Origin: Deltaproteobacteria bacterium
GTDB taxonomy: Bacteria; Desulfobacterota; DSM-4660; Desulfatiglandales; HGW-15
Reading direction: 5' to 3'
Length of the DNA stretch: 55,743 nt
Assembly: GCA_016930795.1 (NCBI GenBank)
Contig: JAFGFY010000069.1
Location: forward strand, 1-55,743
The first letter of the stretch is position 1. Every line of letters begins with the position of its first letter. Shown here one piece after another: positions 8,907 to 29,460 of this stretch. The position numbers and the translations under genes are program-made. The notes under the pieces are model-generated. The model was not told the DNA's origin, did no database searches, and saw only the letters and a list, made by a program, of their open reading frames with translations.

Positions 8907-9356
8907 TTATTCGGTTTCCCTTAGAATCTCTCTTGGCGTTTTCATAGAGAGGCGGGTCTGAGCCACGCGAATCTTTTCCTCTAATCGCTTCCTCCTCTCA
9001 AAGGCCTCTTCTGCCTTTTCAAGGAGTTCATCGATATCGGCAGGCTTCATCAGATAATCCGTAGCGCCGGACTTAAGTCCCTCCACGGCGGACTCCACTG
9101 TCGCGTGTCCGGTCAACATAATGACCTCCGTCAAAGGATGTTGCCTCTTGATCTCCCGAAGTGTGGCCATGCCATCCATCCCCGGCATCTTGACATCCAG
9201 TATGACCACGTGAATGCTGTGGGAGTTGAGCATTTCCAAGGCCTCTCCCCCACTCAAGGCCGTCAGCAAATCTATTCCTTTTTTTGAAAGCAATTTCTTG
9301 GTGGTGGAAAGAAACCTCTCCTCATCGTCCACTAACATGATCCTCATTTCTTCCAT
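8907..9356 (-). CDS. Stand-alone response regulator (receiver plus coiled-coil tail)
   Basis: MLVDDEE, ILDVKMPGMDG, LTGHA, YLMKP. Confidence 0.9.
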   Translation of the reverse strand: MEEMRIMLVDDEERFLSTTKKLLSKKGIDLLTALSGGEALEMLNSHSIHVVILDVKMPGMDGMATLREIKRQHPLTEVIMLTGHATVESAVEGLKSGATDYLMKPADIDELLEKAEEAFERRKRLEEKIRVAQTRLSMKTPREILRETE

Positions 9357-9427
9357 GTTTCACCTCTCTGCCTTTGATGGGGTTTTTGCGCCTGAAAGTC
9401 GAATTCCTATGAACTGAAACCGACATC

Positions 9428-11113: not shown

Positions 11114-11140
11114 AGGCCCAGCCCACACCAGACAATCCAG

Positions 11141-11620
11141 CTACTTCTTGTCTTCCTTTTCCTGGTCAAATACCCTGCCGGGAAATCGCATCAAATCTTT
11201 AATCCTCGCCTTTCGAATCTTCTGTTCATGGGAGTCCTTCTTTTCAAAGGCCTCAGCCAGTTTCATCATCAGATCTTCGAGTTTTACGGGTTTCAGTAGA
11301 TAATCAAAGGCCCCCAGCTTCATCCCCTCAATACTGGTCTCCACTGATGCGTGACCGGTCAACAAAATGACCTCGGCAAGGGGTTGAATCCTCTTGATCT
11401 CTCTCAGGGCTTCGATGCCGTCCATCCCTCCCGGCATCTTGATATCTAGAATGATGGCGTCAAAGAGTTTCTTCTTGACCTCTTCAAGGGCTCTCTCTCC
11501 GCTCAATACACCAATGGCATCCATGTCCCTCTTATTTAACCGGTTGACCAGGGTTTCCAAAAAATCCTGTTCGTCATCGACGACCAATACTCTGAAAGAA
11601 TCCATGCACGCCTCCTTCAA
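11141..11620 (-). CDS. Stand-alone response regulator
   Basis: VLVVDDE, ILDIKMPGGMDG, LTGHA, LLKP; likely ATG start at 11605. Confidence 0.9.
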   Translation of the reverse strand: MKEACMDSFRVLVVDDEQDFLETLVNRLNKRDMDAIGVLSGERALEEVKKKLFDAIILDIKMPGGMDGIEALREIKRIQPLAEVILLTGHASVETSIEGMKLGAFDYLLKPVKLEDLMMKLAEAFEKKDSHEQKIRKARIKDLMRFPGRVFDQEKEDKK

Positions 11621-11621
11621 T

Positions 11622-13289: not shown

Positions 13290-13319
13290 CTCAGGTCACC
13301 CACTTAACGGTCTTTCGGA

Positions 13320-14975
13320 TCAAAAAACATCAGGCCAGGACATAAACTGCCAGTAGCCTAAGATGGTCCACAGCCAGAGGACAAGCCATGCCAGAATGGT
13401 GACGGGAAGGCCATACTTCACAAAATCAAGAACATCCAAGAGTCTTTCCCCCGTCTCAGGATCTTTTCCCATGCCGAATACAATGGCATTGTTGGGGGTG
13501 CCCACCACCAGGAAGTTGGCAAAGGAAGAGGAAAACGCACAGGCCAGACCTAACTTCCATACATGGACATAGGCTAGGTCGGCCATGGGCAGGACGATCG
13601 GCCCTAGGGCGGCCACCGTGGCGCCGTCGCTCATGAAGTTGGTCATGGTTCCGGTTAGCAGGCTGACTCCAATGATTAGCATGTCCCCTTGAGTCATGAA
13701 ATCCGGAAGAAAATCGACGAAACTATGGGCCAGCCAGAGCGCCCCACCGGTAAAACTCAGTCCTACACCCATGGCACAGGCAGCAGCATACAGACCCACG
13801 ATATCAAACGCTACACCCTCCTGAATGTCATCCCAGGTGACAATGCGGCAAATAAACATGGCCATGATGGCATAAAGGGTCGGCCCGCCCAAGCCGGAAT
13901 GTTCCCCCAGGATAACCCAGGCCCCAACCAGAACGACAAGGATGGCCGCCATCATGGCTTCTTTTCCGCTAAACTTCGGCATCTTGGCTACTTCCGCTTT
14001 CACGATCTGTCTGGGATTGACATTTTGAACCTGAAACCTTGGTTTGCAGCGAAGATACATATAGGTCCCTATGACAATAGCCATCAGAGGAACAAAGGGC
14101 ATTCCATATTTCATCCACTCCAAAAAAGATATGGGACTCCCGTGCCCCATCAAATAACCGACCATAATGGCGTTTCTTCCTCCAGCCGCTGGTGAACCGG
14201 GACCGCCGTGGTTGGCGGCAAAACAGACTCCCAGCAACAGAAATACGGCCAGGGCTCTGTCTTTCTCAATCCCATTTATCTTGCAAGTCACTTTGTAAAC
14301 GCCCATGAGGACCGGGATCAGAAGGGCCACCAGGGCATGTTCGGACAAAAAGCTCGCCACTATAGCCAAAAGGGGAAGGAAGACAAAAGAAAAGGCCTTG
14401 GCATTCTTAATGTGGCTCAAGAGTATTAACCCGATTCTTTTATCAAGTCCGGTCTTACCGACACCGACCGCCACCACCAGGATGCCGAATATAAAAAAAA
14501 CGGCATCCTTCATATAGGCCTGGGAGATTTGTTCGATGGGAAGGATACTGAAAAGGTAGAGCATGACACCCACCAGGATATCGGTCGCACCCAGGGGAAG
14601 GGCTTCCGTCCCCCAAAGAAAGACCGCAAGGCCGAAGATGGCCAGCATCGTCTTGGCCATTCGGGCAGCATCTGTCGGTGTGATCAATGGTTTCGTCTCT
14701 GAGTGACTCTCCTTCTCGGTATCTTTGTGGGCCTCATAAGCATGGGGATAGAATTTTTTGTTTATATTATCGGTAATGGTCTCACACCCCGGTGATAAGG
14801 CGTAGCCGGGTGGATGGGCTTTGGACACCAGATTGATCATGCCCTTAGGAGGAGGAACAAGCAATACCCCAGCAAAAACGATCGCGCCGATCAACAATAG
14901 AACCGGTTTATATCCCGGCTTGCTTGCCCACACACTCGTTTTAGGATGAGCCACCTCTCCAGCTGAATTCACCAT
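13320..14975 (-). CDS. SLC13/DASS family anion:sodium symporter
   Basis: GTEALPLG, FLSEHALVA, AANHGGPGSPAAGGRNA, TNFMSDGA, VGTPNNAI; start placed at the ATG after GGAGGAG. Confidence 0.88.
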   Translation of the reverse strand: MVNSAGEVAHPKTSVWASKPGYKPVLLLIGAIVFAGVLLVPPPKGMINLVSKAHPPGYALSPGCETITDNINKKFYPHAYEAHKDTEKESHSETKPLITPTDAARMAKTMLAIFGLAVFLWGTEALPLGATDILVGVMLYLFSILPIEQISQAYMKDAVFFIFGILVVAVGVGKTGLDKRIGLILLSHIKNAKAFSFVFLPLLAIVASFLSEHALVALLIPVLMGVYKVTCKINGIEKDRALAVFLLLGVCFAANHGGPGSPAAGGRNAIMVGYLMGHGSPISFLEWMKYGMPFVPLMAIVIGTYMYLRCKPRFQVQNVNPRQIVKAEVAKMPKFSGKEAMMAAILVVLVGAWVILGEHSGLGGPTLYAIMAMFICRIVTWDDIQEGVAFDIVGLYAAACAMGVGLSFTGGALWLAHSFVDFLPDFMTQGDMLIIGVSLLTGTMTNFMSDGATVAALGPIVLPMADLAYVHVWKLGLACAFSSSFANFLVVGTPNNAIVFGMGKDPETGERLLDVLDFVKYGLPVTILAWLVLWLWTILGYWQFMSWPDVF

Positions 14976-15021
14976 CCTCTCCTCCTCCAAACAGACTCTG
15001 GCGTCTGTTTACGCAATGATC

Positions 15022-15471
15022 CTACTTAGAATCGACACTCCCTTTATCAGTCTGCTTTTCCAAATTCATTTCTGCATCAAACTGCATGTTGGGGGCCTTC
15101 TCCAGCATCTCCGAAACCACACGCTTAAGCTGGTCGACGTTGCTTCCCGTCTTTTCCACAAAAACCGTCGTATCGGATTGACTCGCGTACTCCCTGTAGT
15201 CTGAGAAGAAGGAATGAACGACCACGGGCAATGGGGGGACACGATTCTCAGCCTTCTCCAATATGGACAATTCCTTCGCGCAGGGCACGCCCACATCCAG
15301 GATCAAGAGATGCATATCTCTTTTCTCGTGAATCAGATCTAGGATCTCCTGAGCACTTTTTGCCAGTATGATCTCGTAGCCCTCCCCTGCTAGCTCACGC
15401 CTCAGAAATTCCCTGACATAACGGTTCCGGTCTGCCACTAAAATGGTGAAGTGATCTCTCACGCGATTCAT
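15022..15471 (-). CDS. Atypical receiver-domain protein
   Basis: REC fold pattern with ILVADRN instead of the acidic VDD pocket; LILDV and FVEK retained. Confidence 0.75.
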   Translation of the reverse strand: MNRVRDHFTILVADRNRYVREFLRRELAGEGYEIILAKSAQEILDLIHEKRDMHLLILDVGVPCAKELSILEKAENRVPPLPVVVHSFFSDYREYASQSDTTVFVEKTGSNVDQLKRVVSEMLEKAPNMQFDAEMNLEKQTDKGSVDSK

Positions 15472-15500
15472 TCCTATGCAAGGATTACGTATTCTGAACG

Positions 15501-15517
15501 AGCAATGGCTGTGCCAA
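15501..15517 (-). promoter_or_regulatory. sigma54 -24/-12 promoter
   Basis: Minus strand reads TTGGCAC-AGCCA-TTGCT, 30 bp upstream of the 15471 start. Confidence 0.85.
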
Positions 15518-15611
15518 TCAATGCTCTACAGCCCATCAGCGGCAACTCATTAAAAATGAGGAGAAAAATGGCCTATGGATAAACCCGAATAGCGCATTCA
15601 AATGGCCCACA

Positions 15612-15637
15612 TGTCGGGAACCTTTACAGAATGTAAA
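15612..15637. promoter_or_regulatory. Candidate enhancer (UAS), copy 1
   Basis: TGTCGGGAACCTTTACA-GAA-TGTAAA, starting 96 bp from the promoter TGGCAC. Confidence 0.65.
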
Positions 15638-15702
15638 GGGAAAGTCATTACAGGGGAAATCGAAAAAGGTCATGGATGGAGGATCGAATTTCGGTGAGTT
15701 AG

Positions 15703-17376
15703 TTATTTTACCCCTGCTATGGCCTGTGAAACATTAAAGGAATAGCTGTTGATCTTCTCAAAGGCATTGAGAAGATCAACAAAAATCATGCCTCTCTCGA
15801 TCTCACATGTTCCCCTAACCAATCGATCATAGTGTCTTGATCTCATTTCATCGGCCATTTTGTTAATATCACTCACTGACTTCACAGAGTCTGAAAAAAT
15901 TCCCTTATCTTCTTCTTTCATGGCCTTGACCGTCAAAATAATAAATTCCTTGACCGCAGAAGATATGGTCGCATAGTCTTTCATGGCCCGTTCTGAGAAG
16001 AAAAACCTGTCTTCGATGATCCTCTCGATTCCCTCGGCAATGTCTTCCACCTCATCACCGATTCTCTCAATATTGTTGCTCATCCGCATCAATGAGGCGA
16101 TCTCCTGAGTCTCCTCAATAATAAGGTTCTCCTGCATAATTTTAACCAGGTAGTCGGTGATTTCTCTTTGAAAATGATCCAGCACATTCTCTCTCTCCTT
16201 CCACATCGATAATCTCTTTAAATCTCTTATTGTGAGAGACTCAATGACCTCATCGAACATCAATTGAGCAACCCCTCCCATCCTGATGATCTCACGCCTT
16301 GCCTGCATCAACGCTACTTCCGGTGAGTCCAGGTAGCGTTTATCCAGATATTTGATCTGATAAACTTCATCCGCGTGCCCGTTTTTTCGCCGGGGGGTAA
16401 GCCACATGGCTATATTGACCAGCCAAGGAAGCACAGAGAGAAAAAGGATCGCATTTAGGGTGTTAAAAAGGGTATGGGCATTGGCGAGATGACGGGATAT
16501 ATACGGTTTTTCCTCCCCCATAAGAAGGTCCGGGAAACCGATTCCGTGGAGATTCATGGTGAAATATGTGACTGTCTTTATAAAATAAGGAAAGGTTGAA
16601 ACAACAAGGAAAACGCCGATAAGATTAAATAGGGTATGTGCCCTTGCCGCCTGGTGAGCGCGAAGACTCGCCCCAATGCTCGCCAACTCCGCCGTAATCG
16701 TCGTGCCGATGTTGTCGCCCAAGATGAAGGCGACACCTACTTCAAAGCTGATTAGCCCCTGGCTGGCCAAGGCCATGGTGACGCCGACCGTGGCGCTCGA
16801 ACTCTGTACGGCCATCGTCATAATCGTGCCGATAAGGACACACAGAAGGATTTCTCGAAGGTCTTGAGCCTGTATTTCAGTCAAAAAGTTGATGAATTCG
16901 GGCGAGCTTTTTAGGGGTGCAAGCCCGGCCTTCATGGTGGTCAACCCATAGAAGAGCATTCCGAAGCCCAGTAGGACCTCTCCCCAATGCTGCCATTTTC
17001 TCGATGAAACGAAGAATCTAAGCAGGACCCCCGCGGCAATGGCCGGAAGGGCATAGGCATCCAGTTTGAAAGCAATCAACTGCGCCGTGACCGTCGTGCC
17101 GACATTGGCCCCGAGGATGACTCCGATCGCCTGGGTGAGGCTCATTAGGCCCGCTTCGACAAAGCCGACCAACATCACGGTCGTCGTGCTCGAGCTCTGA
17201 ATAATGCTGGTAACCAGTGCGCCGGTGGCGCACGCGATGATTCTGTTGGAAGATACGGCCGATAAAACAGTACGCAATCTATGACCGGCAACCATTTTGA
17301 GCCCTTCGGACATGATTCTCATGCCGAATATAAAAAGCCCAAGTCCTCCAAGGACCTGATAGGCTACTTGATCCAT
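15703..17376 (-). CDS. Na+/Pi cotransporter family protein with C-terminal PhoU-like repeats
   Basis: GGLGLFIFGM, IIQSSSTTT, GANVGTT, VQSSSAT, GDNIGTT, helical C-terminal half with NIERIGD. Confidence 0.9.
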   Translation of the reverse strand: MDQVAYQVLGGLGLFIFGMRIMSEGLKMVAGHRLRTVLSAVSSNRIIACATGALVTSIIQSSSTTTVMLVGFVEAGLMSLTQAIGVILGANVGTTVTAQLIAFKLDAYALPAIAAGVLLRFFVSSRKWQHWGEVLLGFGMLFYGLTTMKAGLAPLKSSPEFINFLTEIQAQDLREILLCVLIGTIMTMAVQSSSATVGVTMALASQGLISFEVGVAFILGDNIGTTITAELASIGASLRAHQAARAHTLFNLIGVFLVVSTFPYFIKTVTYFTMNLHGIGFPDLLMGEEKPYISRHLANAHTLFNTLNAILFLSVLPWLVNIAMWLTPRRKNGHADEVYQIKYLDKRYLDSPEVALMQARREIIRMGGVAQLMFDEVIESLTIRDLKRLSMWKERENVLDHFQREITDYLVKIMQENLIIEETQEIASLMRMSNNIERIGDEVEDIAEGIERIIEDRFFFSERAMKDYATISSAVKEFIILTVKAMKEEDKGIFSDSVKSVSDINKMADEMRSRHYDRLVRGTCEIERGMIFVDLLNAFEKINSYSFNVSQAIAGVK

Positions 17377-17496
17377 TAAGGTCTAATCCTTTTTGGGTTC
17401 CTTTCAAAGGATCTCAATATTCAAAGGTCGCTTGACAATAGATTCAGATATACTGAATCATGATAGTTTGTCAGACTACTCAAGAAAGTGTGTGCC

Positions 17497-17970
17497 TCAT
17501 CTCTCTTCATACTTCTGTGCTCCATAAGGATTAATCGTCAATACAGGAACGGGTGACATTTTCACCACCCTATCAGCCACACTTCCAAAGAAAATTCGGT
17601 CAAGCCCTTTTCTTCCATGAGTCCCCATGATAACAAGATCAATCTCTTCATCCCCAATGTAATCCAAGATTTTCTGAGCAGGATTTCCAAGTGCGACTCT
17701 GGTTATGACATCCGGATATCCCTTTAAATGCACTTCAGCAAACTCTTCTATCTTTGTCTCCGCTCCTTTTACAAGTTTTGCTTCAAACTGTTCTATGGCT
17801 CCGGGGACAACTGAAAAACTGGCATATTGTCCCAACTCCCGCGCGACGAAAAGCAGATGAATTTCCGTGTCAAACCTCTCCGCCATCAAGATAACCCACG
17901 GTGCAATGTTGGGAGAGTTGTCCGATATATCGACCGGGAACAAAATTTTTTTAAATGGCTTCATCATCAT
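17497..17970 (-). CDS. Universal stress protein
   Basis: FKKILFPVDIS, DLVIMGTHGRKG, FFGSVADRVV, PVLTI; start at the ATG run after AAAGGAGG. Confidence 0.92.
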   Translation of the reverse strand: MMMKPFKKILFPVDISDNSPNIAPWVILMAERFDTEIHLLFVARELGQYASFSVVPGAIEQFEAKLVKGAETKIEEFAEVHLKGYPDVITRVALGNPAQKILDYIGDEEIDLVIMGTHGRKGLDRIFFGSVADRVVKMSPVPVLTINPYGAQKYEER

Positions 17971-18015
17971 CCCTCCTTTGTTTCCTATGTTTTTGAGCGA
18001 TCCCGTCATTCCGAG

Positions 18016-18031
18016 AGCAAGGCCTGTGCCA
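18016..18031 (-). promoter_or_regulatory. sigma54 -24/-12 promoter
   Basis: Minus strand reads TGGCAC-AGGCC-TTGCT upstream of the USP gene. Confidence 0.85.
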
Positions 18032-18130
18032 TAGAAGAGGAGACACTTTTTTCTTCTCTAACATTTTGGGAATACTGGAGGATCATATAAGCGGAAATCG
18101 AGCAAGCAGTGGGAGAATTATCGGCTATCC

Positions 18131-18156
18131 TGTCGAACATTTTTACAGACTGGAAA
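18131..18156. promoter_or_regulatory. Candidate enhancer (UAS), copy 2
   Basis: TGTCGAACATTTTTACA-GAC-TGGAAA, starting 100 bp from the promoter TGGCAC. Confidence 0.62.
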
Positions 18157-18157
18157 A

Positions 18158-19474
18158 TTAAAAAATCGGCTGATGAAAACCCGGTTTCACAAAAACACAG
18201 TCTTCGAGTGAAGCTCGACCATCAACAACGTCTTCCGCGAAAGTTCGGCAGTCAGGGCTGCCACATGCCCCGCATTCCTTGCCCGGAAGCAGTTTCAACG
18301 TTTTCTCCACTTCTCCTTGTCGCCTGATGGCCTCGGAAATGGGTAAGCGCTTTGAATCGCGCCTCTCTAGAAAGTCTTTTCTGTCAATGAAAAACCATCC
18401 CGCGCTGAACAATCTCTCAGCATCCGCATCATGAATTCTCTTGGCAGTACCGAACATTCTAACAAGCCTTCGCAGGTTATTCTTGGCTTGATATCTATCC
18501 TTCAGGGCCATTGGCCCGCCAATACACCCCTCTGGGCAGGCTCGAAACTCCACATATTCGATATCACTCAATAGCCCCATTTCGAGCTTCTCAAGATATC
18601 GAATGGTTTCCTTAATCCCTGATACGGCCAGATATTTCCCTGAATTCAGTCCTTCGATTTCCCCGCCGGACATTCCCCAACCGAGTCCGATCCCGCCGGA
18701 TTGATGCAGCACCTTGCTTGTATCAATCTCTCGAAGGCTCTTGTGGACAATATTGAATAACTCGCTCATGCCCAAGGCGCCATCCAGATAAGATTTTTGA
18801 AGAGTGACCGGCTCCCTTATGGAGATCATTTCCGCCGCACAGGGTGTCACGTCATATACGCCGATCGATTCAAGAGGCACCCCTTCGGATCGAAGACGCT
18901 CCTTCAAATATTTTGCGACAAGCTCCCTTGGCGTAATGATGGGAAGAAGATGCTTCATCAGAGATTGAAAGCGTTGGGCAATGATCCTGTTAACTACCGG
19001 GCAATTCGGCGAGATCAGGGGCCAAAGAGGCGCTTCATCGGAATGATGCTTCCGAATGTACCATTCCGTGGCCAAGTTGAATAATTCGTTCATATATGCC
19101 TGATCGTAGACATAATTAAAGCGACGACGCAATGCCAATAGAATATCGTTGGGCATGACACGCCTATCGGATTGTGTGTAAAAGACTGGTGAGACACTGA
19201 GGAATTGTGTGTAAAAGACTGGTGAGACACTGAGGATCGGATGGCGGGCTAAGCTTGAGAAATCGTCCCCGTTCGTTATGGCCTTGATCGCCCCTTTTGG
19301 GCATGCCCGAATACACTCTCCGCAATAGATACAAGGGCCTTCAATACGAGCTATCCCCTTTCTGACGCGAATAGCTTTTGTCGGGCAGGCCTTCATGCAA
19401 AGCACACACCCGGTGCACCTCTTTTCGTCGATCCGGATATAGTCATGCGAATCATCGAAATCTGCCATCTTCAC
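18158..19474 (-). CDS. [FeFe]-hydrogenase-large-subunit-like Fe-S protein (2x[4Fe-4S] N-terminus, degenerate H-cluster motifs, C-terminal Fe-S module)
   Basis: CTGCVLCMKACP and CIYCGECIRACP; ISPNCP, TPCAAE, EFRACPEGCIGG; LPGKECGACGSPDC. Confidence 0.8.
   Translation of the reverse strand: MKMADFDDSHDYIRIDEKRCTGCVLCMKACPTKAIRVRKGIARIEGPCIYCGECIRACPKGAIKAITNGDDFSSLARHPILSVSPVFYTQFLSVSPVFYTQSDRRVMPNDILLALRRRFNYVYDQAYMNELFNLATEWYIRKHHSDEAPLWPLISPNCPVVNRIIAQRFQSLMKHLLPIITPRELVAKYLKERLRSEGVPLESIGVYDVTPCAAEMISIREPVTLQKSYLDGALGMSELFNIVHKSLREIDTSKVLHQSGGIGLGWGMSGGEIEGLNSGKYLAVSGIKETIRYLEKLEMGLLSDIEYVEFRACPEGCIGGPMALKDRYQAKNNLRRLVRMFGTAKRIHDADAERLFSAGWFFIDRKDFLERRDSKRLPISEAIRRQGEVEKTLKLLPGKECGACGSPDCRTFAEDVVDGRASLEDCVFVKPGFHQPIF
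19171..19236. repeat. Exact 33-bp tandem duplication inside the Fe-S gene (in frame)
   Basis: attgtgtgtaaaagactggtgagacactgagga twice; protein shows LSVSPVFYTQF-LSVSPVFYTQS. Confidence 0.95.
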
Positions 19475-19624
19475 GGTCCCTTACTTGATATGAACCCGTT
19501 TTCATGCCCCTGTAACCACATCGACACATGGTACTTTGGTAAGAAGCTCCTTTGATCCCGTTTTCATCACTCGCGCGCCCGTGGGAATGGCATGTTGTGA
19601 GATATTCCGGACTCCCGATGCCCT

Positions 19625-20398
19625 TTATTCCTTTCCCGATGTGAGGCGGGAGTGACGAGGTTTTGAACTTCCTACAAGATTATCACCCCTCATACGGCGG
19701 GGCGTCTTCTTCAGACGATTTGGAAGGCGACTTTTCTTCTCTGTCAGTTGATAGGCTAACATCCCCAAGGTCATGGAGACGTCCTCGTTCAAAACCGTCA
19801 TCTCTTTCGGGATTATGACGGATCTTGATGCAAGATAGAGTACCCCCGTCAGCCCGACTTTTCCAAGACGATCGATAACCCCCTGGACTTCCGGGGGAGG
19901 CAAGGCGATGACCGCGATGTCGTCCTCTTTGGGATCGATCTCCGTTTCAATCTGATTCATATGATAAACGGAAATTCCCCTATACATGTCCTCTATCTTC
20001 TCTGGTGCCTTGTCGAATATCTTATTGACGGTGAAATGTTGATTGTTCATCACCTGGGAATTGATCATGACATCACTGAACTGCCCTGCCCCTATGACCA
20101 CGATATTCCACTTTCTATCCAATCCGAGTATCTTTGAGAGTTCCCTTTTCAAGGTATGGACATCGTATCCCATTCCCCTGCAACCAAAACATCCGAAATA
20201 GGATAGATCTTTGCGAACCTGCGCCGAATAAGAACCGCTTACCCTGGCAAGCTCCGTGGAATTGGTCGTCATCACAAGGTCTCTTTCCATGAGGTCAATG
20301 GCCCTGTAATATATGAGAAGGCGTTCTACCGTGAATTTTGATATTCTATCTGATAATCTACTTCCGTTTCTGCCCATGCATTCGACCATCCATTTCAA
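19625..20398 (-). CDS. rex: Redox-sensing transcriptional repressor Rex family protein (divergent)
   Basis: TVERLLIYYR, SAQVRKDLSYFGCFGCRGMGYDV winged helix, Rossmann VVIGAG. Confidence 0.85.
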   Translation of the reverse strand: MKWMVECMGRNGSRLSDRISKFTVERLLIYYRAIDLMERDLVMTTNSTELARVSGSYSAQVRKDLSYFGCFGCRGMGYDVHTLKRELSKILGLDRKWNIVVIGAGQFSDVMINSQVMNNQHFTVNKIFDKAPEKIEDMYRGISVYHMNQIETEIDPKEDDIAVIALPPPEVQGVIDRLGKVGLTGVLYLASRSVIIPKEMTVLNEDVSMTLGMLAYQLTEKKSRLPNRLKKTPRRMRGDNLVGSSKPRHSRLTSGKE

Positions 20399-20453
20399 GC
20401 ATACTTTCCCTTTTACACGGAGGTCTCAAAAGGACTTAAAACCCCCATGTCAT

Positions 20454-21065
20454 TCAACAGGAAATGTATTGATTGGTCTTCAAATAACTCATAACCTGAT
20501 GCACGCACTCCCCGACGGATAGCTGATCGGTTCGCAGATGAATCTCTGGTTTCTCCGGAGGCTCGTAGGGGGCACTGATTCCGGTAAATGATTTGATGAT
20601 CCCCTGACGGGCCTTCTGATAGGCCCCTTTGGGATCACGCTTCTCACAAACCTCCACAGGGCAGTCCACGAACACCTCCACAAATGAACCGTCTTCCGAA
20701 AGAGACCGAGCCATTCGACGGTCTTTTCGGTAAGGTGAAATAAAGGCTACCAGATTGACAATGGCACAATCCCGCAGAATCTTTGCTACCTCTCCCAACC
20801 TTCGAATGTTCTCTTCTCGGTCAGTGGGTGAAAAACCCAGGTCCTTATTAAGTCCATGACGAACATTGTCGCCATCGAGAATATAAGTGTGAAATCCCCT
20901 TTCATAAAGGGCCTCCTCGCTAGCCACGGCTAAAGTTGATTTGCCGGATCCTGAAAGCCCTGTAAACCAGATGGTAAATCCAGGATGCCCATTAAGCCGT
21001 TCTCGATCATTGCGGGTAATGGCGCCCTGGTGCCAATATACATGCGTAGCTTTCTGTATAGTCAT
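20454..21065 (-). CDS. cysC: Adenylyl-sulfate (APS) kinase
   Basis: WFTGLSGSGKSTLA, LDGDNVRHGL, DLGFS..DREENIRR, FISPY, RDPKG, FTGISAPYE; start placed at ATG 21065 (track 21122). Confidence 0.95.
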   Translation of the reverse strand: MTIQKATHVYWHQGAITRNDRERLNGHPGFTIWFTGLSGSGKSTLAVASEEALYERGFHTYILDGDNVRHGLNKDLGFSPTDREENIRRLGEVAKILRDCAIVNLVAFISPYRKDRRMARSLSEDGSFVEVFVDCPVEVCEKRDPKGAYQKARQGIIKSFTGISAPYEPPEKPEIHLRTDQLSVGECVHQVMSYLKTNQYISC

Positions 21066-21203
21066 GTTTCGCGCCCTTCTGGCATCCCCTCTCATTCGAT
21101 TCTTCCCTTCTGCCGAATTCATCTAATGTCTCGGCTCTCCTTCCTCCCTTCTGAGCTCCATGAGCCTACGGATCAAGCGAAGTCGCTCTTCTTCCTATAT
21201 TAT

Positions 21204-22505
21204 CTAATGGGGCTCTTCATATGTCAGCACTGTATCTTCTTTTAAAAACGGGCTTTCTTCTTTCACCCGCTTTCCCTCCAGAGTAAAGGTCAGAAAGGCC
21301 CCGACAACGAGAAGTGCAGCCGCCATCAAAAATGAATAGGTGTACCCGCCTGTGGCGCTCTGGAGCATCTGGGAGAGCCGTCCCATCACGAATCCACCGA
21401 CCCCCCAGGCGGTAAATACAATCCCGTAGTTGATCCCGAAATGGCTCATTCCCCATTGATCCTTGGTAAGGGATGGGAAAAGAGAAAGGTTGGCTCCATA
21501 GTTGAAGCCGATAAAGGTCGCCAGAAGCACGAGAACGGCTGCAACGGCATTTTCGGATCCCACCACGGGAATCGCGATCAGCATCAAAACAGCCTGAAAT
21601 ATCAATATGGATAAAAGTGTGGCTCGACGGCCGATCTTGTCCGAAAGCACGCCCGCGACGATTCGCCCCCCCGCGTTGCCGACGGCCAGAATCGCCACAG
21701 CCAGAAACGCCAGATTCCCCATACTCTCCTTCGCCATCCCCGCCACGCTGCCGATAACCATCAATCCCGCCCCGGCGCCTATAAAATAGATAACCCATAT
21801 CATATAGAAGGTGCGGGTCTTCATCATCTCGGAAGGCGGCGAGTTTTTATTCTGAAGGGGCTTTATCAGAGAAGGGCCTTCCAAGTCTGTCTTGCCGGCA
21901 GCCGTTTCAGGCGGAGGATTGATCAAAAGAAGGGAAAGCCCGCATACGACGAAAAAAAAGGCTATTCCGAAAAAGAGCATGGCCTTCTGCAGTCCCCAGG
22001 CTCCAAGCAGGTATTGGGACAGGGGAGCAATATAGACCGAGGCCAATCCGAAACCGGAAACCACGAGCCCTGCAATCAACCCGGTCTTTTCGGGAGGGAA
22101 CCATTTCAGGGCCGGCGGAGTAGCGGATGAATATCCGAACCCGATTCCCGTTCCGGCCAGCACACCGAATCCAAGGACCCAAACAACGTAATTCGTCGAT
22201 TGGGAAATCAAAATAAAGCCTAGGCCCACCAGGAGGCCGCCTATAAACGCCGTGATCCTTGGCCCGAACCTGTCCTGGCATTTACCCGCAAGGATCATGG
22301 CAAATGCAAAGACGATGCAACAGACCGCATACGGATCATTCAAGGAGGCGGGCTCCCATTGAAAGGCCCCTTGTCCTCCTTGGTCGATAGATTCCTTGAT
22401 CGCCCCCTTGAAAATACTCCATGTATAGAGGATACCCAACGCCAGGTTGATGCCCGTCCCACTAAAAGTGACCAACCAGCCTTTGTTTTTTGATTGAGAT
22501 GTCAT
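21204..22505 (-). CDS. MFS transporter, OFA / monocarboxylate family
   Basis: INLALGILYTWSIF, QDRFGPR, KWFPPEKTGLIAG, GRIVAGVLSDKIGRR, GINYGIVFTAWGVGG. Confidence 0.88.
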   Translation of the reverse strand: MTSQSKNKGWLVTFSGTGINLALGILYTWSIFKGAIKESIDQGGQGAFQWEPASLNDPYAVCCIVFAFAMILAGKCQDRFGPRITAFIGGLLVGLGFILISQSTNYVVWVLGFGVLAGTGIGFGYSSATPPALKWFPPEKTGLIAGLVVSGFGLASVYIAPLSQYLLGAWGLQKAMLFFGIAFFFVVCGLSLLLINPPPETAAGKTDLEGPSLIKPLQNKNSPPSEMMKTRTFYMIWVIYFIGAGAGLMVIGSVAGMAKESMGNLAFLAVAILAVGNAGGRIVAGVLSDKIGRRATLLSILIFQAVLMLIAIPVVGSENAVAAVLVLLATFIGFNYGANLSLFPSLTKDQWGMSHFGINYGIVFTAWGVGGFVMGRLSQMLQSATGGYTYSFLMAAALLVVGAFLTFTLEGKRVKEESPFLKEDTVLTYEEPH

Positions 22506-22606
22506 AGTTCATTCCTCGTAGGAAATAATTCGTTCTTCAAATAGCCTTCTTCTAATGCCATACTCCCATTCACCGCCGTGATCACAGCCGAACGCAGAGA
22601 AGCCCG

Positions 22607-24595
22607 CTACTGTCGGCCCTCAATCAATCGATCGACGACATCGGGTTCCGCTAGTGTTGAGGTATCGCCTAGTTGATCAATAGCGCCTTCAGCGATCTTT
22701 CTCAGGATCCTGCGCATGATTTTCCCGCTTCGTGTCTTCGGAAGGGCATCGGTAAAGTGGAGTTTGTCCGGAGACGCGATGGGCCCGATCTCCTTTCTCA
22801 CATGCTGGACGAGCGCCTTTTTGAGTTCCTCCGAAGGCTCAAAACCCTGCTTCAAGGTGACAAAGGCATAGATCCCCTGCCCTTTGATGTCATGGGGGAA
22901 ACCGACAACAGCAGATTCGGCCACGGCCTCGTGAGCCACTAAGGCGCTTTCCACTTCCGCCGTTCCCATCCTGTGGCCCGAGACATTGATAACGTCATCC
23001 ACACGGCCCATAAGAAAATAATACCCGTCTTCATCCTTTCGGGCCCCGTCACCCGTAAAATAGAGACCGGGCATCTGGACAAAGTATTGTGTTTTGAATC
23101 TGTCCGGATCCCCATAGACCGTTCGCATAAAACCGGGCCACGCCTTTCTGATATAGAGGTGCCCTCCCTCGTTTATGTCGGCTTCCGTGCCGTCCTGTCT
23201 TAGTATTACAGGATTGACGCCGAAGAATGGGAGCGCTGCCGATCCCGGTTTCATGGCCATGGCCCCTGGAATCGGTGTAATCATGAACCCTCCTGTCTCC
23301 GTCTGCCACCAGGTGTCCACGATGGGACATTTCTCCTTCCCGATTACATTGTAATACCAAAGCCACGCCTCGGGGTTGATCGGCTCTCCCACTGTTCCAA
23401 GAAGTCGCAGGCTGCTCAGGTCCCTCCTGTTCGGCCAATCATCCCCGTTTTTCATGATCGCTCGAATCGCCGTAGGTGCTGTATAGAAAATGTTTACACC
23501 ATACTTCTCCACCACTTCCCAGAAACGGTCCGGTTCCGGATAGTTGGGGACCCCTTCAAACATCAGGGACGTCGCCCCTAGAGAGAGAGGGCCGTAGACA
23601 ATGTAGCTGTGACCCGTCACCCATCCGATGTCGGCCGTACACCACCAGATGTCTTCGTCCTTGTAGTCGAAACAGTATTTCAAGGTCATCGTCGTATAGA
23701 GGAGGTAACCCGCCGTGGTATGAAGAACGCCCTTGGGCTTCCCTGTACTGCCGCTGGTATAAAGGATGAAGAGAGGATCCTCCGCATCCAGGCTCTCAGG
23801 TTCGCAATGGATAGAAGCCTTAGCCATAAGCTCGTGCCACCACAAGTCCCGGCCTTCCTTCATCTGGGTTTCTTTGTCTACTCGATTCACCACGATACAT
23901 TGCTTGACAGTCGGACACATCTCCAAGGCCGCGTCCGCGCTGGGCTTGCTGGGCAGGACCTTTCCCGAGCGGTATCCCCAGTTGCAGGTAATCAATGTCT
24001 CTGCCTTACAGTCCTGAATCCGATCCCTCAGGGCGTCAGAGCTAAAGCCTCCGAAGACCACACTATGAATCGCACCGATCCTGGCACAGGCCAGCATTGC
24101 GATGGGAAGCTCGGGAATCATTGGAAGATAGATAGCGACTCGATCCCCCTTTTTCACATCAAGCCCCTTGAGGACATTGGCAAACTTGCAGACCTCCCGG
24201 TGAAGACCTTGGTACGTGTAGGTCCTGGATTCTTCCAGGGGCTCTCCTTGCCAGATCAGAGCGGCCTTGTTTTTTCTCCATGTCTTCAAATGCCGATCCA
24301 GACAGTTGTACGAAACATTAAGCTTTCCTCCTGCAAAATAGCGAATGTAGATATCGTCCTTGAAACTGTATTCCTCTGAGGGTCCGTCCCATTTCTTGAA
24401 CCAATCCAGGTACTCTTCTGCAGCTTCCGCCCAAAAACCTTGAGGATCTTCAATCGATCTCTTATAGCGTTCTTCATACGCTTTCATGTTTTTCAAATAA
24501 GCCTTTTCTACAAACGCCTCGGTCGGCTTAAAAGCCCTCTTTTCCGCATAAACCGATTCCACATGACCTGCATTTTCCTTTGTTTTTGCATCCAT
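22607..24595 (-). CDS. acs: Acetyl-CoA synthetase (AMP-forming)
   Basis: [67 protein letters not shown]; start at ATG 24595 after AAGGAG. Confidence 0.96.
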
Positions 24596-24681
24596 CTCTT
24601 TGTATTTCTCCTTTCTTGCGATAAAATCTATTAGTTTGTCGAAGGCCCTGAGCAAAACCCGGGGATAGGAATCGCGAGGCC

Positions 24682-26025
24682 TCACCAGTTATATATAAAA
24701 GAAAACTGAATCCGATTGTCCGTCCCCCTGCTCATCTCTTTGTATTCCGTGTCCCAATGGCTGTATTCCAGACCGACAGTCACGGAGGGAATGACGTCAA
24801 AAAGCCCGTTGAGATAGACAAACCTGTTTTTCGCCCGCATACCGGGATTCAGGTATTTGTCAGAAGGATTATCCAGACCAAATCCCGCATGGAACTGCCA
24901 TTCCTGATCGGGTTGATATCGGAGCTGGGCCCAGCCCCCCGTCGCCTTAATTCCTTCACCTGCTATGACGTTTACTCCCTGGAGAATCCCTCCAAAGTAA
25001 TCATCGAGGTTGCGCCCAACAAATGCTTCCCCTTTCAATGAGATTTGATCGGAAAAAGGGATATCAAAGTCCAAATTGACGGACCACGACTGCAATTCTC
25101 TCTCGATTGTATCCCGTTTCATCTCTTCTTCCCCATAGTGGCCGGAAAGACCGAACACACTCTCCTTCTCAGTGAAGCATTTTGTAGCTAAAGCAAGTCT
25201 GGCTTGAATGGATGGGATTCCTGTGTCCTCGCCGTCATTCTCACCGTCGAGATCTAGGTCCTCGTTGACTAATCCTGACGTCCTCGCTATGGACACAGCC
25301 GTCAACAACCTGTTTCTATTGTTCAGGGCATAATCGGTGGTCAAGCCCAATTGTGGTCGCCGATACCCAATGTTCCCTCCGGCCCATCCGACAGTATAAT
25401 TCAGGGTGTAGGGATTCAGAGGTGAAATCACGTCGGATGTTTGTCCCGCAATGAGGCTCAAACCCTCTTTTTTGATCCTAAGAAAAGCATGCCGCAGCAT
25501 GGGTTCCGCCTTGTTTTCATGCCTCGTAGATCCGTCTCCATAAAAATCAACCTCTATTCTTGCTTGAGCCGTCCAATCAGTAAAAGGCGGGGCCGTGATG
25601 TTCATGCCCAGCCTTGTTTGTCTCGCCGTCATGTTGAACTCATCATCATTCTTGTTCTCGGCTTCTCCTGAAATGTACAACACAAAATCACCATAGTTGG
25701 TCCTGCTGTCGTCGTAGGAGGCATCCAATTTAATATAGCCGTACGGTTTAAATTGGAACTTGTTGCTTGCACGGGGCTCCACAACCTCTTTCTCTGTCTT
25801 TTTGGCGCTGCTTTCCACATTTTGCTCGATTTTTGTTATATTTGCTCCTTCTTCATTTCTCTCTTGTTGCTGTCTCATTAACTGCTTAAGCTCGTTAAGC
25901 TCTTCTTCCAGTTTCTCTATCCTCATTTGGAGGGGCTCCGTTTGAAGCTCCGCACTCACCCTTGAATAGAGGCAAAAACAAAAGACTCCACAGATTATGA
26001 AGGAAAAGAATATTCTGCGCATCAT
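24682..26025 (-). CDS. Outer-membrane porin, DcaP-like (signal peptide, coiled coil, beta-barrel)
   Basis: Signal peptide, heptad coil [33 protein letters not shown]-terminal IQFSFIYNW beta-signal. Confidence 0.78.
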
Positions 26026-26052
26026 GTTTTTTCTCTCTTTCTATTCGCTATT

Positions 26053-26302
26053 TTAACGAACAACCCAAACGGCTTTGTTCTTTGCTGATTCAACGACTTT
26101 CCTGCAGACCCGACCCCTTGAAAATTCCTTTGATCTTCTCTTCCCAGGTCGCGCAAAAATTCCGGGATCTTTCCAAAAAGATGAAATGAAACCACCGTGG
26201 TTTGTCTCGCAGGGAAAACGCGACTCACATACCGCACAGCTTCAAAGGATTGATCCGATCCGTCCACTGCGAGCAGCACTTTTCTTGCGTGTCATTCATC
26301 AT
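26053..26302 (-). pseudogene. Universal stress protein remnant (frameshifts plus large internal deletion)
   Basis: ATG start is out of frame with VLLAVDGSDQSFEAVRYV; the USP-type C-terminus GRVCRKVVESAKNKAVWVVR-stop lies in a different frame from that N-terminal segment. Confidence 0.75.
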
Positions 26303-26389
26303 GGAAGGACCTCTTTTTTGAAGTGGTTTCCTTTGCCGTGGTTATTATCTCATATTTGATAAACAGAACAAATTTAAAAAAACGGTTAG

Positions 26390-26406
26390 AGCAACTTGCG
26401 TGCCAA
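26390..26406 (-). promoter_or_regulatory. sigma54 -24/-12 promoter
   Basis: Minus strand reads TTGGCAC-GCAAG-TTGCT, upstream of the usp remnant-porin-acs-MFS run. Confidence 0.9.
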
Positions 26407-26430
26407 GAAAAATCCTTTTTGGTGATAATG

Positions 26431-26443
26431 TAACTGGTTGATT
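26431..26443 (-). promoter_or_regulatory. IHF binding site
   Basis: Minus strand AATCAACCAGTTA matches WATCAANNNNTTR and lies between promoter and enhancer. Confidence 0.7.
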
Positions 26444-26500
26444 TATAATAAATTGTTTGACAGAAGGGCAGGCTCTGCAAAGAAGTCGATTGCAAAGGTT

Positions 26501-26526
26501 TGTCAGGATTTTTTACAGAGTGTAAA
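26501..26526. promoter_or_regulatory. Candidate enhancer (UAS), copy 3
   Basis: TGTCAGGATTTTTTACA-GAG-TGTAAA, starting 96 bp from the promoter TGGCAC. Confidence 0.68.
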
Positions 26527-26552
26527 AAGAGCAATGGGGGAAAGTTCTTTAA

Positions 26553-27983
26553 TTACCCCTCTCTTACCGTTGTCTCCATTTCAAGCTGATATTTCTCTAT
26601 CTTGGAGTGAAGGGTCGGTCTGGAGAGACCGAGGAGCTTAGCCGCCTGGGAGCGATTGCCACGCGTGAGGTTCAGTGCTTCACTGATAAGAATACTGGCA
26701 AACCTGTTCATGGATGAATCAAAAATGTGTTCTTCCACGGGATCACTCAGAACTTCACGTACCCAGCCTCGGATCGGTTGATCTTCCGTTTGACTCATAA
26801 TCCTTTTCCCGGAATCCCCAATACTGATGGCCTGAGCAATATCTTCGGGGTGGATGGGGGCGCCACGATTGAATATTAAGACTTTATGAATAGTATTGGA
26901 AAGCTCGCGAACATTGCCCGGCCATTCATAGTAACTGAGGGTTTCTTTTGCTTCCTCTAGAAGTCCCGGGGGATCAATGCCCAGTGCCGCTGCGTAATGC
27001 GATATATAGTAATCTGTTAGAAGAAGGATGTCGTCTTTCCGTTCACGAAGCGGGGGAAGCCAAATTGTCACGACTTTAAGGCGATAATAAAGGTCTTCGC
27101 GGAAAAGGCCTTCAGAAATGGCCTCTTCCAGATCCCGATTTGTGGAGGCGATGATCCTCACATCAACGGGAAAGGTCTCTCGGCCACCGAGACGCTCAAC
27201 TTTTCTTTCTTGAAGCAGTCTCAATATCTTCCCCTGAATACTGAAGGGCATGTCACCAATCTCATCTAGGAGAACCGTTCCGCTATTAGCCTGCTCGATT
27301 TTCCCCACACGGCGATGAGCCGCCCCGGTGAAGGCCCCTTTCTCATATCCGAACAATTCACTCTCCAGCAGTGTATCAGGGATCGCCACACAGTTTATCA
27401 CGTGAAAAGGCTTGTCGGATCGAAGGCTATGCTGATAGATGGCTCGAGCGACCAGTTCCTTGCCTGTGCCGGACTCCCCTCGAATAAGGACAGTCGCCTC
27501 TGTTGAGGATACCCTCCCGATGGCCTTGTAGACATCCTGCATGCAGGTACTTCTACCGATGATGGCTTCCCCCGATGTCTCTTCGGGAACGGCATTCATA
27601 TTCACCGGCGAGCGCATGAAACGACCCGCTTCCAGCGCTTGAGCGATCACGCTGAGCATATCCGGAATGTCAAAGGGTTTGAGGATATAATCAAAGGCCC
27701 CCATCTTCGTGGCCTCTATGGCGGTCTCTGTGGTCCCGTAGGCAGTCATGATGATCACAGGAAGCTTGGGCTCGACTTTATGGATGGCCTCGAAGGTTTC
27801 GAAGCCATTCATTCCTGGAAGCCGCATATCCAGAATGACCAGGTCCGGAACTTCCGCCTGGACCATTGAGAGGCCCGCTTCACCGCTGGACGCGCTTTTT
27901 ACTGAATACTCTTCCTCTTTAAGAAGCTTCTCAAAGCTCCTACGCAATTGATCATCGTCATCAATAATCAGGATGTTGTTCAC
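26553..27983 (-). CDS. NtrC-family sigma54-dependent response regulator (REC-AAA+-Fis HTH)
   Basis: ILIIDDD, GESGTGKE, GAFTGA, LLDEIGD, WPGNVREL, GNRSQAAKLLGLSRPTL. Confidence 0.95.
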   Translation of the reverse strand: MNNILIIDDDDQLRRSFEKLLKEEEYSVKSASSGEAGLSMVQAEVPDLVILDMRLPGMNGFETFEAIHKVEPKLPVIIMTAYGTTETAIEATKMGAFDYILKPFDIPDMLSVIAQALEAGRFMRSPVNMNAVPEETSGEAIIGRSTCMQDVYKAIGRVSSTEATVLIRGESGTGKELVARAIYQHSLRSDKPFHVINCVAIPDTLLESELFGYEKGAFTGAAHRRVGKIEQANSGTVLLDEIGDMPFSIQGKILRLLQERKVERLGGRETFPVDVRIIASTNRDLEEAISEGLFREDLYYRLKVVTIWLPPLRERKDDILLLTDYYISHYAAALGIDPPGLLEEAKETLSYYEWPGNVRELSNTIHKVLIFNRGAPIHPEDIAQAISIGDSGKRIMSQTEDQPIRGWVREVLSDPVEEHIFDSSMNRFASILISEALNLTRGNRSQAAKLLGLSRPTLHSKIEKYQLEMETTVREG

Positions 27984-29460
27984 GCTCTGACTCCGTCATG
28001 GGGAGGGTCATCACAAAAGTCACTCCCTCGCCTTTATTTGAGATGAAATCCAGCCACCCGCCATGATTCGCCACAATCCTAGCGGCGATATTCAGGCCGA
28101 GGCCCGTTCCCTCGTCTTTTGTTGTGAAAAACGGCTGAAAAATCTGGTCCCTTATCGAATCCGGGATCCCTGACCCGCTATCAGCAACTCGCACCACCGC
28201 CACACGGCCTAACGGCTCGACAAAACGCTCTTCTTCTTGAATCCGAATACACCCGCCTCCTTCCATCGCCTCGCAGGCATTAATGATCAGATTAACAAGA
28301 ACCTCTTTCAGTTGCTCAGGGTCGGCCTGAATCTCCGGAAGAAAGCGCTCCCGGTGGAGGTCTATGTCTACATCATACGATTTAAGCCGATGCTCCAGTA
28401 ACTGAAGGACCATATCCACCACTTCTGAAGGACTCACCTTCTGCATTTTAAGCTTTGGCGGACGAGCGAACTCGATAAAATTTTGGATGATGGTGTCAAT
28501 ACGACCAATCTCCTCTGAGATCACCGTGAAGTCTTCTTTCTGAACAGGGGTAAGTTTCAGGCTTCGTCCCAGGGAAAAGAGCCTCATCTTGACCGAGGTC
28601 AGGGGGTTGCGAACACTGTGGGCGACCCCTGCGGCCAGTTTACCGACCATAGCCAACCTCTCGGTCTGCAAGAGGTGCTCGCGGCTTTTTTCAAGTTCAG
28701 AATGGGTGTGATCCATATCTTCGATCAGCCCGCGAACACTGCGATCAAGGGCCTCGACCTCATCACCGGATCGATCCATCCCTCCTTTGCGATCCGCATC
28801 CAAAGCCAATCTGCGAACCGGTCCCAAGATCTGGTTGACCAACACGAAGACCAAGAGCAAGCCAAGCAGGATAACTGCCGGCATCGCTGTGGCCGCAATG
28901 ATCCTGAGGTTTTTGGCCTGGACGCTGCTCCTGTCTCTGGCCTCCGTAATCCTGTACCTGTGGATGTCTTTGTATACCTCACACAGATCCAGTGTCTCGG
29001 AGAAGTCCGTGCGCACTCGAACATGAAGCAGGGCTCCCTCTTCCCTTTGATCGGTTTTGTAATAGGCGATCACGTCGTCTTTTCCCGTGATATACCGAAG
29101 GTAGGCCGTCTCGATCCGGTCGATGGCTCGTTTTTCTTCCTCATTCTCGGCCAGCAGCCGCACTTCATGGAGCCTTTCACTAAAGATCTGCCGATAGACC
29201 CCCAGCTGCGTGAGCCAGTCCGGATCATTGTCCATTAAATAGTAGGAAACCAATCCCTTCTGGTTGACGAGGGCCGTCTCAAGGGCCTCGGCTGCCTGGT
29301 AGGCGGCCACATTCTTGTTAATGATACCGTTCAAGAGGCTTTCCATTCGGTAGGTATACCATACCGTAACCAAGGCACCCATCAAGGCGATAAAGACCAG
29401 GACGGTCAAAATTAAGTATATCTGATTGCGCAGGCTGATTTTTTTAACAATCTCCATCAC
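27961..29460 (-). CDS. Sensor histidine kinase with helical periplasmic domain, cognate of 26553-27983
   Basis: Two TMs, H-box AHSVRNPL, FFTTKDEGTGLGL; overlaps the start of the regulator. Confidence 0.9.
   Translation of the reverse strand: MMEIVKKISLRNQIYLILTVLVFIALMGALVTVWYTYRMESLLNGIINKNVAAYQAAEALETALVNQKGLVSYYLMDNDPDWLTQLGVYRQIFSERLHEVRLLAENEEEKRAIDRIETAYLRYITGKDDVIAYYKTDQREEGALLHVRVRTDFSETLDLCEVYKDIHRYRITEARDRSSVQAKNLRIIAATAMPAVILLGLLLVFVLVNQILGPVRRLALDADRKGGMDRSGDEVEALDRSVRGLIEDMDHTHSELEKSREHLLQTERLAMVGKLAAGVAHSVRNPLTSVKMRLFSLGRSLKLTPVQKEDFTVISEEIGRIDTIIQNFIEFARPPKLKMQKVSPSEVVDMVLQLLEHRLKSYDVDIDLHRERFLPEIQADPEQLKEVLVNLIINACEAMEGGGCIRIQEEERFVEPLGRVAVVRVADSGSGIPDSIRDQIFQPFFTTKDEGTGLGLNIAARIVANHGGWLDFISNKGEGVTFVMTLPMTESEREQHPDY

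Follow-up and report, generated by a model that had tools for sequence, protein, structure and literature searches.

A shared enhancer-like element ahead of three sigma-54-type promoters in a carrier-and-signalling island of Desulfobacterota, and its probable regulator

The regulation of high- and low-affinity sulfate uptake in sulfate reducers is an open question, and the one model published for an island of sulfate-carrier genes names no promoter type or DNA site (Sci Adv 2025, PMC11887813). What, then, could switch on such an island? The question is raised by a stretch of 55,743 nt (hereafter, the window) from contig JAFGFY010000069.1 of the assembly GCA_016930795.1, assigned to a Deltaproteobacteria bacterium (Desulfobacterota; Desulfatiglandales; HGW-15). 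On the minus strand of this window, three promoters of the sigma-54 type each follow, at a nearly constant distance, the same 26-nt element, here called an upstream activating sequence (UAS). From sequence comparisons, we consider it probable that these three elements are enhancers for a single sigma-54 activator—the NtrC-type response regulator encoded at 26553-27983—acting with the sensor kinase encoded at 27961-29460.

The source assembly contains 4,216,487 bases in 285 contigs, with 48% G+C and a completeness of 94%. Genes of the window were annotated with Pfam and with NCBIfam and its curated cut-offs, and comparisons were drawn with a set of 40 relatives and with a sample of 301 genomes from the phylum Desulfobacterota. 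Coordinates of all principal features are given in Table 1.

Three promoters with one upstream element

The minus strand of the window has three exact matches to TGGCAC-N5-TTGCT and the plus strand none, where shuffled sequence would lead us to expect 0.04 (none of 100 shuffles reached three); the genome-wide count is 17 in 4.2 Mb. In each window promoter, the GG and GC doublets are spaced by 10 nt within a TGGCAC-N5-TTGCW context. Each is preceded by the pattern TTTMCA-NN-CTGTAAA-N7-GACA, read on the minus strand, at the start-to-start distances listed in Table 1 (edge-to-edge gaps of 96, 100 and 96 bp). UAS2 begins 2 nt past the stop codon of an Fe-S protein gene and UAS3 lies 27 nt after the stop codon of the regulator gene itself.

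The 26-nt pattern has only three matches in the entire assembly, all within the window. A scoring matrix of 27 columns, trained solely on 32 sites from outside the window and run over both strands of the whole genome, gave the three window UASs scores of 30.4 to 38.4 bits, with the next-best site scoring 15.0 bits and having no promoter downstream, so that the regulon in the assembled genome comes down to these three promoters. The 95-99-nt spacers between UAS and promoter share 0.52-0.58 identity with one another, against a shuffle mean of 0.56-0.57; being no more alike than shuffled sequence, they argue against an origin of the UAS copies by recent duplication of one cassette.

Between each UAS and its promoter lies a site resembling the consensus for integration host factor (IHF), WATCAANNNNTTR. 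These results bear out the preliminary description of the locus, which had placed TGGCAC-N5-TTGCT promoters at 15501, 18016 and 26390, an enhancer motif TGTC-N7-TTTACA-GA-N-TG(T/G)AAA (the reverse complement of the minus-strand UAS) 96, 100 and 96 bp away, and an IHF-type site that matched the consensus at 26431 and was weak at 15543 and 18059. A genome-wide scan, proposed at the same time, found that the motif is not frequent at random.

Among host factors, rpoN was found on contig C114 (213.5 bits), alongside five genes of the HU/IHF family (Bac_DNA_binding). One of these five lies inside the window, at 52032-52301 on the plus strand.

Table 1. Coordinates and main properties of the promoters, candidate enhancers, IHF-like sites, regulatory genes and gene units in the window
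Feature	Position	Strand	Description	Basis
P1	15501..15516	-	-24/-12 element TGGCACAGCCATTGCT; precedes receiver gene starting at 15471	Exact match
UAS1	15612..15637	-	TTTACATTCTGTAAAGGTTCCCGACA; 121 nt upstream of P1; 30.6 bits	Matrix from foreign sites
IHF-like site of P1	15543..15555	-	Weak; 2 mismatches to consensus WATCAANNNNTTR	Read by eye
P2	18016..18031	-	TGGCACAGGCCTTGCT; precedes usp	Exact match
UAS2	18131..18156	-	TTTCCAGTCTGTAAAAATGTTCGACA; 125 nt upstream of P2; 30.4 bits	Matrix from foreign sites
IHF-like site of P2	18059..18071	-	Weak; 2 mismatches to consensus WATCAANNNNTTR	Read by eye
P3	26390..26405	-	TGGCACGCAAGTTGCT; separated from the porin gene by a leader of ~350 nt	Exact match
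UAS3	26501..26526	-	TTTACACTCTGTAAAAAATCCTGACA; 121 nt upstream of P3; 38.4 bits	Matrix from foreign sites
IHF-type site of P3	26431..26443	-	AATCAACCAGTTA; 0 mismatches to consensus WATCAANNNNTTR	
NtrC-type response regulator	26553..27983	-	Receiver, sigma-54 AAA+ domain with GAFTGA, Fis-type helix-turn-helix; proposed UAS binder	
Cognate sensor kinase	27961..29460	-	Two membrane segments, HisKA, HATPase	Pfam, hydropathy
Unit behind P1	8907..15471	-	Atypical single receiver, DASS carrier, two pairs of Cache kinase and receiver	
Unit behind P2	15703..18009	-	Usp and Na/Pi-cotransporter-like protein with PhoU domain	Pfam, NCBIfam
Unit behind P3	18158..26279	-	Putative Usp remnant (85 aa), porin, acetate-CoA ligase, MFS carrier, APS kinase, Rex, Fe-S protein	

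Conservation of the element and its association with the regulator

Pairs of UAS and promoter were sought in other genomes as a 15-nt palindrome (up to 2 mismatches) followed, 105-130 nt downstream, by a -24/-12 element. Loci encoding orthologues of the regulator yielded 32 further pairs, found in 8 of 15 loci from relatives and 18 of 33 loci from named records; several of the remaining loci run into contig ends. Together with the three window pairs, these make up the 35 pairs on which spacing and column counts are based. The consensus reads yTTTACAnnCTGTAAAAAAnnyyGACA, and in every case it is the GACA arm that points towards the promoter. This arm, at +22 to +25, was not imposed by the search, and its four bases are present in 31, 33, 35 and 30 of the 35 sites; other columns left free in the search are also constrained, with C at +8 in 26 sites and A at +15 and +16 in 29 and 30. 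Distance to the promoter falls within 119-125 nt in 28 pairs. The motif, as the preliminary description had read it from the window, is kept in orthologous upstream regions, down to an arm for which we had not searched.

Column counts over the same 35 promoter regions reveal an A/T block at -52 to -48 and -43 to -38 and TT at -29/-28 (T at -28 in 29 regions), with no further conserved block between -70 and the UAS besides this IHF-like one. At up to one mismatch, the IHF consensus starts -38 to -40 from TGGCAC in 11 regions, where a rough chance expectation is well under one.

In three genomes, two overlapping copies of the element lie in opposite orientation (G007:C182:41163-41199; G010:C188:792-828; G155:C12:23311-23347), giving a symmetric TGTC-N7-TTTACA-N3-TGTAAA-N7-GACA, which amounts to two adjacent TGT-N11-ACA sites. 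The G007 copies have a sigma-54 promoter on one side only.

The regulator whose gene abuts UAS3 has the three domains expected of its class. Its receiver (Response_reg, 114.5 bits, residues 4-113) presents the phospho-acceptor aspartate in an LVILD context; the AAA+ domain (Sigma54_activat, 235 bits) contains an exact GAFTGA; and the C-terminal helix-turn-helix (HTH; HTH_8, 49.9 bits, residues 432-465) is conserved among orthologues. It falls below every named NCBIfam equivalog cut-off, including those for NtrC (488.1 bits against 558.6), AtoC (449.9 against 714), the PEP-CTERM regulator PrsR (421.7 against 502.6), ZraR (367.9 against 760), GlrR and others. In the kinase, the membrane segments flank a stretch of ~150 residues resembling CHASE3 or a four-helix bundle, followed by HisKA and HATPase domains; the kinase gene sits directly upstream of the regulator gene in 30 of 33 orthologous loci.

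Orthologues of the regulator were found at full length in 15 of the 40 relatives (68-77% identity), with a fragment of 87% identity at a contig end in a sixteenth. Further orthologues, at 63-75%, come from named records of uncultured Desulfobacterales, Desulfobacteraceae, Desulfatibacillum, Desulfomonile, Syntrophobacteraceae and Syntrophales. Scanning the 40 relatives and the source genome with the 26-nt pattern, one mismatch allowed, returned 61 matches in 22 genomes, compared with 2 for the reversed pattern. The motif was present in all 16 relatives that bear an orthologue and in 5 of the 24 others. When 31 motif instances from 30 loci were inspected, 26 had a -24/-12-like element 100-143 nt downstream.

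The same association is seen across the phylum sample, where the motif occurs in 59 genomes and the regulator has a match at E ≤ 1e-180 in 51. At that threshold, 45 of the 51 genomes with the regulator hold the motif, compared with 14 of the 250 without; relaxing the threshold to E ≤ 1e-140 gives 49 of 67 and 10 of 234. Six genomes have the regulator and no motif, four of them with a variant element beside the regulator gene and three of those four with a promoter 120-121 nt away. Placement is likewise shared: in tables of the 49 phylum-sample genomes holding both, the motif lies no more than 500 nt after the regulator stop codon in 17, and the element is often found 25-150 nt past the stop codon of the orthologue. 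The geometry of enhancer, IHF-like site and promoter is conserved in about a sixth of the sampled Desulfobacterota genomes.

Orthologues that travel with the motif retain an HTH stretch SRPTL[H/L].KI. Sister regulators at ~50% identity (loci L137-L142, from genomes G113, G237, G221, G178, G076 and G322) have no such element nearby and carry RNTLRSK instead of RPTLHSK; this difference in the HTH may possibly represent a specificity switch.

Mechanism, rival explanations and known systems

Following the textbook model, an external signal would cause the membrane kinase, by way of its periplasmic CHASE3-like sensor, to phosphorylate the regulator, which would then assemble on a composite site of three TGT/ACA half-sites, ordered TTTACA, 3 nt, TGTAAA, an A-rich 7 nt and GACA, with the GACA end towards the promoter. 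From this composite site, ~121 nt ahead of the -24 element, the ATPase would be brought to the sigma-54 RNA polymerase through a bend of the IHF type, about -38 relative to TGGCAC, and the promoter would then open. The motif, its uniqueness, spacing and conservation and its company with the regulator are observed in the sequences; binding of the UAS by the regulator, use of IHF, the transcription start sites and the signal are inferred. Classical sigma-54 enhancers include those of NtrC at glnAp2 and of NifA, aided by IHF, at nifH. The window shares their architecture, with an activator site ~100-130 nt from a GG-N10-GC promoter and an IHF-type site in between, and the window regulator shares with their activators a receiver, a GAFTGA AAA+ domain and a Fis-type HTH. 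It differs in having a single composite site of three half-sites rather than two separated dimer sites, and in that its targets are carriers and signalling proteins rather than nitrogen genes.

That the motif belongs to the adjacent NtrC-type regulator and its kinase had been proposed in the preliminary description, and the proposal is now supported by co-occurrence, by placement, by the conserved pairing of kinase and regulator genes, by spacing and the IHF-like block, and by the presence of rpoN and HU/IHF genes. Several observations pull the other way. Five relatives (G006, G012, G019, G029 and G030) have the motif and no detected regulator, the G029 site being also without a promoter, as do 10 of the 234 phylum-sample genomes that have no match at E ≤ 1e-140; several of these motif-bearing, regulator-negative genomes, in the relatives or the phylum sample, are incomplete. 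Conversely, G081 and G298 possess an orthologue with no motif within 4 kb. For five of the 31 inspected motif instances, the region 90-170 nt downstream contains no -24/-12-like element. As the genomes are related rather than independent, Fisher values exaggerate the association. The IHF-like sites of P1 and P2 match the consensus poorly, and the five HU/IHF-family genes are placed at the level of the family. The window's own TauE and PPDK_N genes (30472-35132) do not lie behind this UAS. As to the role of the switch, gene content tentatively points to a response to scarcity of sulfate or energy substrates that would switch on scavenging carriers.

Might the element be an enhancer that serves some other activator, with the neighbouring regulator merely co-inherited with the island? 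Candidates exist, as the window encodes a second, PAS-type sigma-54 activator (41533-42942) and the genome several NtrC-type paralogues at 41-46% identity to the regulator; moreover, a similar 17-mer in Desulfovibrio could not be assigned to one of two regulators (Kazakov et al. 2015, PMC4641369). Against this, a second activator gene occurs in the flanks of only 5 of 33 orthologous loci, the motif follows the orthologue across the 301 genomes and often sits just behind its stop codon, and the promoter nearer to the PAS-type activator (38854-38869) has a different upstream repeat. We therefore regard service to another activator as improbable.

Less probable still is that the TTTACA-N3-TGTAAA palindrome is the operator of a non-ATPase regulator, such as a repressor or nucleoid protein, and that the true enhancer lies elsewhere. 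A lone 15-bp palindrome is indeed typical of many dimeric regulators, and Rex is encoded in the P3 unit. Yet the element is asymmetric, with its GACA arm always facing the promoter, and it holds its distance from the -24 element within the narrow range given above; the only other conserved block between -70 and the UAS is the IHF-like one; and its TGT-N11-ACA part has the same form as sites reported for several sigma-54 activators of Desulfovibrio (PMC4641369). Finally, it is barely conceivable that the copies are by-products of chance or of a recent local duplication and mean nothing for regulation. All three promoters do fall in a span of 11 kb, and Usp-type sequence follows both P2 and P3; yet this view is already contradicted by the unrelated spacers, by chance counts far below those observed, by the scores from the foreign-site matrix and by conservation over many families of the phylum.

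The predicted enhancer of the NtrC-type regulator was also compared with sites described in sulfate reducers. One likeness comes from Desulfovibrio vulgaris Hildenborough, where Kazakov et al. (2015, PMC4641369) list a site predicted for DVU0110/DVUA0057, TGTAAAAAAAGCTGACA (TGT-N11-ACA), ahead of DVU0132-0133, an operon with a TSUP permease. This site has the same form as the promoter-proximal 17-mers of the window, TGTAAAGGTTCCCGACA, TGTAAAAATGTTCGACA and TGTAAAAAATCCTGACA, and TauE/TSUP operons also occur as targets of the motif in relatives (L028, L031, L034, L040 and L102). Differences are equally plain: the motif as published does not include the 5' TTTACA-N3 extension found here, the Hildenborough site is listed at -442 and its promoter at -232 (~210 nt apart, compared with ~121 nt in the window), and the regulators are linked to exopolysaccharide and PEP-CTERM genes (PMC4641369). 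Over the 42-residue DNA-binding stretch that was published for DVU0110, the only stretch compared, 13 of 42 residues are identical to the window regulator by eye; and no Desulfovibrio-level orthologue of the regulator exceeds 46% identity among the 80 loci listed.

DVU2956, also a sigma-54 activator of a sulfate reducer, is reported to bind a motif of three half-sites in an electrophoretic mobility shift assay; it differs in being a one-component protein with no receiver domain and in having other targets, and the likeness is one of motif description (PMC4641369). Two further candidates were considered as homologues and rejected: DVU3305, a general-stress regulator with Usp targets, on account of its GAFSGA loop and its Lon-protease receiver partner, and DVU0539/DVU0946, whose sites are of the TGCAAAC-N-GTTTGCA type.

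Genes behind the promoters and the surrounding island

The gene content given for the three units in the preliminary description was confirmed by Pfam and NCBIfam. Its division into three units also holds, with a correction to their limits. The P1 unit probably does not end with the kinases but takes in a second DASS gene (6808-8655) and a gene for a protein with receiver and CBS domains, as suggested by gene order after the UAS in L027 and L036. A terminator scan of 8000-27000 returned 20 candidates, with 19.3 expected, none of them in an intergenic gap, so that no terminator delimits the units. No RNA data set was listed as containing the stretch, and contigs from two metatranscriptome runs, of the study that also supplied the best-matching DNA data set, produced only pieces of 31-37 nt with 95-99% likeness, which speak neither for nor against expression and are probably conserved parts of other organisms.

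Within the P3 unit, the porin is DcaP-like (just at the cut-off), the acetate-CoA ligase scores 1055.8 bits against a cut-off of 657, the MFS carrier is of the SfMCT monocarboxylate type and the Fe-S protein resembles HydA. The leader after P3 contains an open reading frame (ORF) of 85 aa (26022-26279, minus strand) with no Pfam match at E ≤ 0.1. In tblastn searches, the initial 44-48 residues align with the N-terminal part of Usp-type genes standing behind the same enhancer in relatives, the remainder being unrelated. Probably a usp gene was displaced here by the porin-acs block and left this ORF as its remnant.

The longest usp ORF behind P2 (region 17964-18009, minus strand) begins just 7 nt past the -12 element, and hence this cannot be the real start; translation more likely begins 13 codons further in, where three ATG codons follow one another, and the Pfam match begins at residue 19.

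The first gene behind P1 (15022-15471, minus strand) encodes a divergent receiver (Pfam, 34.1 bits) in which the N-terminal acidic pair is reduced to one Asp. In other genomes, the gene found most often in first place behind the enhancer is a homologue of this receiver. Other recurrent targets there are DASS carriers, Cache kinases with single receivers, proteins with CBS pairs, Usp, TauE with an unknown partner, PPDK_N/PEP-utiliser proteins (~870 residues) and Cytidylate_kin2 proteins; Pat-like acetyltransferases, an AMP-binding ligase, a PstS-like binding protein and a GGDEF protein are rarer.

Nearly all genes across 299-46856 (~46 kb) lie on the minus strand and form one signalling island, with five Cache kinases, nine receiver proteins, two DASS carriers, three CBS proteins, a TauE protein and a channel of the formate/nitrite type. 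A Pfam DNA-binding domain is absent from all nine receiver proteins of the window, and the only DNA-binding outputs found there are the two sigma-54 activators.

A comparable arrangement has been published: a 30.5-kb cluster around a DASS-type sulfate transporter, with many two-component systems and CBS proteins, in Desulfosarcina variabilis (3be13) and 25 other species, for which the model has Cache kinases sensing sulfate and regulators of the 'WalR type' acting on promoters (Sci Adv 2025, PMC11887813). The window likewise groups DASS carriers with Cache kinases, receiver proteins and CBS proteins on a single strand (Pfam; TIGR00785), a match at the level of families, and the recurrent targets behind the UAS in relatives are parts of the same putative sulfate-uptake and sensing island. 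The main text of that paper describes no sigma-54 promoter, enhancer or NtrC-type regulator for the cluster, the term 'sigma54' appearing once in another context (PMC11887813). DASS genes of Desulfobacterium autotrophicum are reported to change expression with sulfate level (PMC5840216, citing Tarpgaard 2017). In our literature search, which paired sigma-54 with sulfate or DASS transporters of sulfate reducers, this enhancer was nowhere described. The preliminary description had called the system uncharacterised; its kind is in fact partly known, through the DVU0110/DVUA0057-type 17-mer and the published DASS cluster, while the enhancer itself is not in print as far as we have searched.

As a regulon prediction, this is of a textbook type, well supported and sound; it is, within the same search, unpublished, and the gene island that it concerns is ecologically important but poorly understood. 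The switch is ordinary; its value lies in the genes attached to it. The 26-bp element, a named regulator-kinase pair and a fixed geometry of enhancer, IHF-like site and promoter provide handles for tests in cultivated species and for regulon prediction in many uncultured genomes.

A broader proposal, which we put forward as doubtful, is that, throughout Desulfobacterota, the entire sulfate-carrier signalling island has one transcriptional output, namely the CHASE3-type kinase and the NtrC-type regulator. Cache kinases and receivers that lack an output domain cannot bind DNA, and so would either feed into the single activator or be produced under its control; the gene that comes first after the enhancer very often encodes an atypical receiver. 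On this view, a sigma-54 switch, and not the published scheme resembling WalR/PhoB, would control uptake of the electron acceptor, and in this genome acetate scavenging (porin, Acs, monocarboxylate carrier), APS kinase and the redox repressor Rex would be coupled to sulfate supply.

One more sigma-54-like promoter, with one mismatch, was seen in the window at 38854-38869 on the minus strand (TGGCATATCCTTTGCT). Its upstream element differs from the three UASs, consisting of two tandem direct copies of TGTCTCATAA at 38963-38982 (minus strand), starting 113 nt before the promoter. The gene string that follows encodes a protein with two receivers, a Cache kinase, two receivers, TauE, an unknown protein, PPDK_N and Cytidylate_kin2 proteins, and then the kinase and NtrC-type regulator. 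A fourth promoter at the head of a string that ends in the kinase-regulator pair, together with the PAS-type activator at 41533-42942, suggests a cascade.

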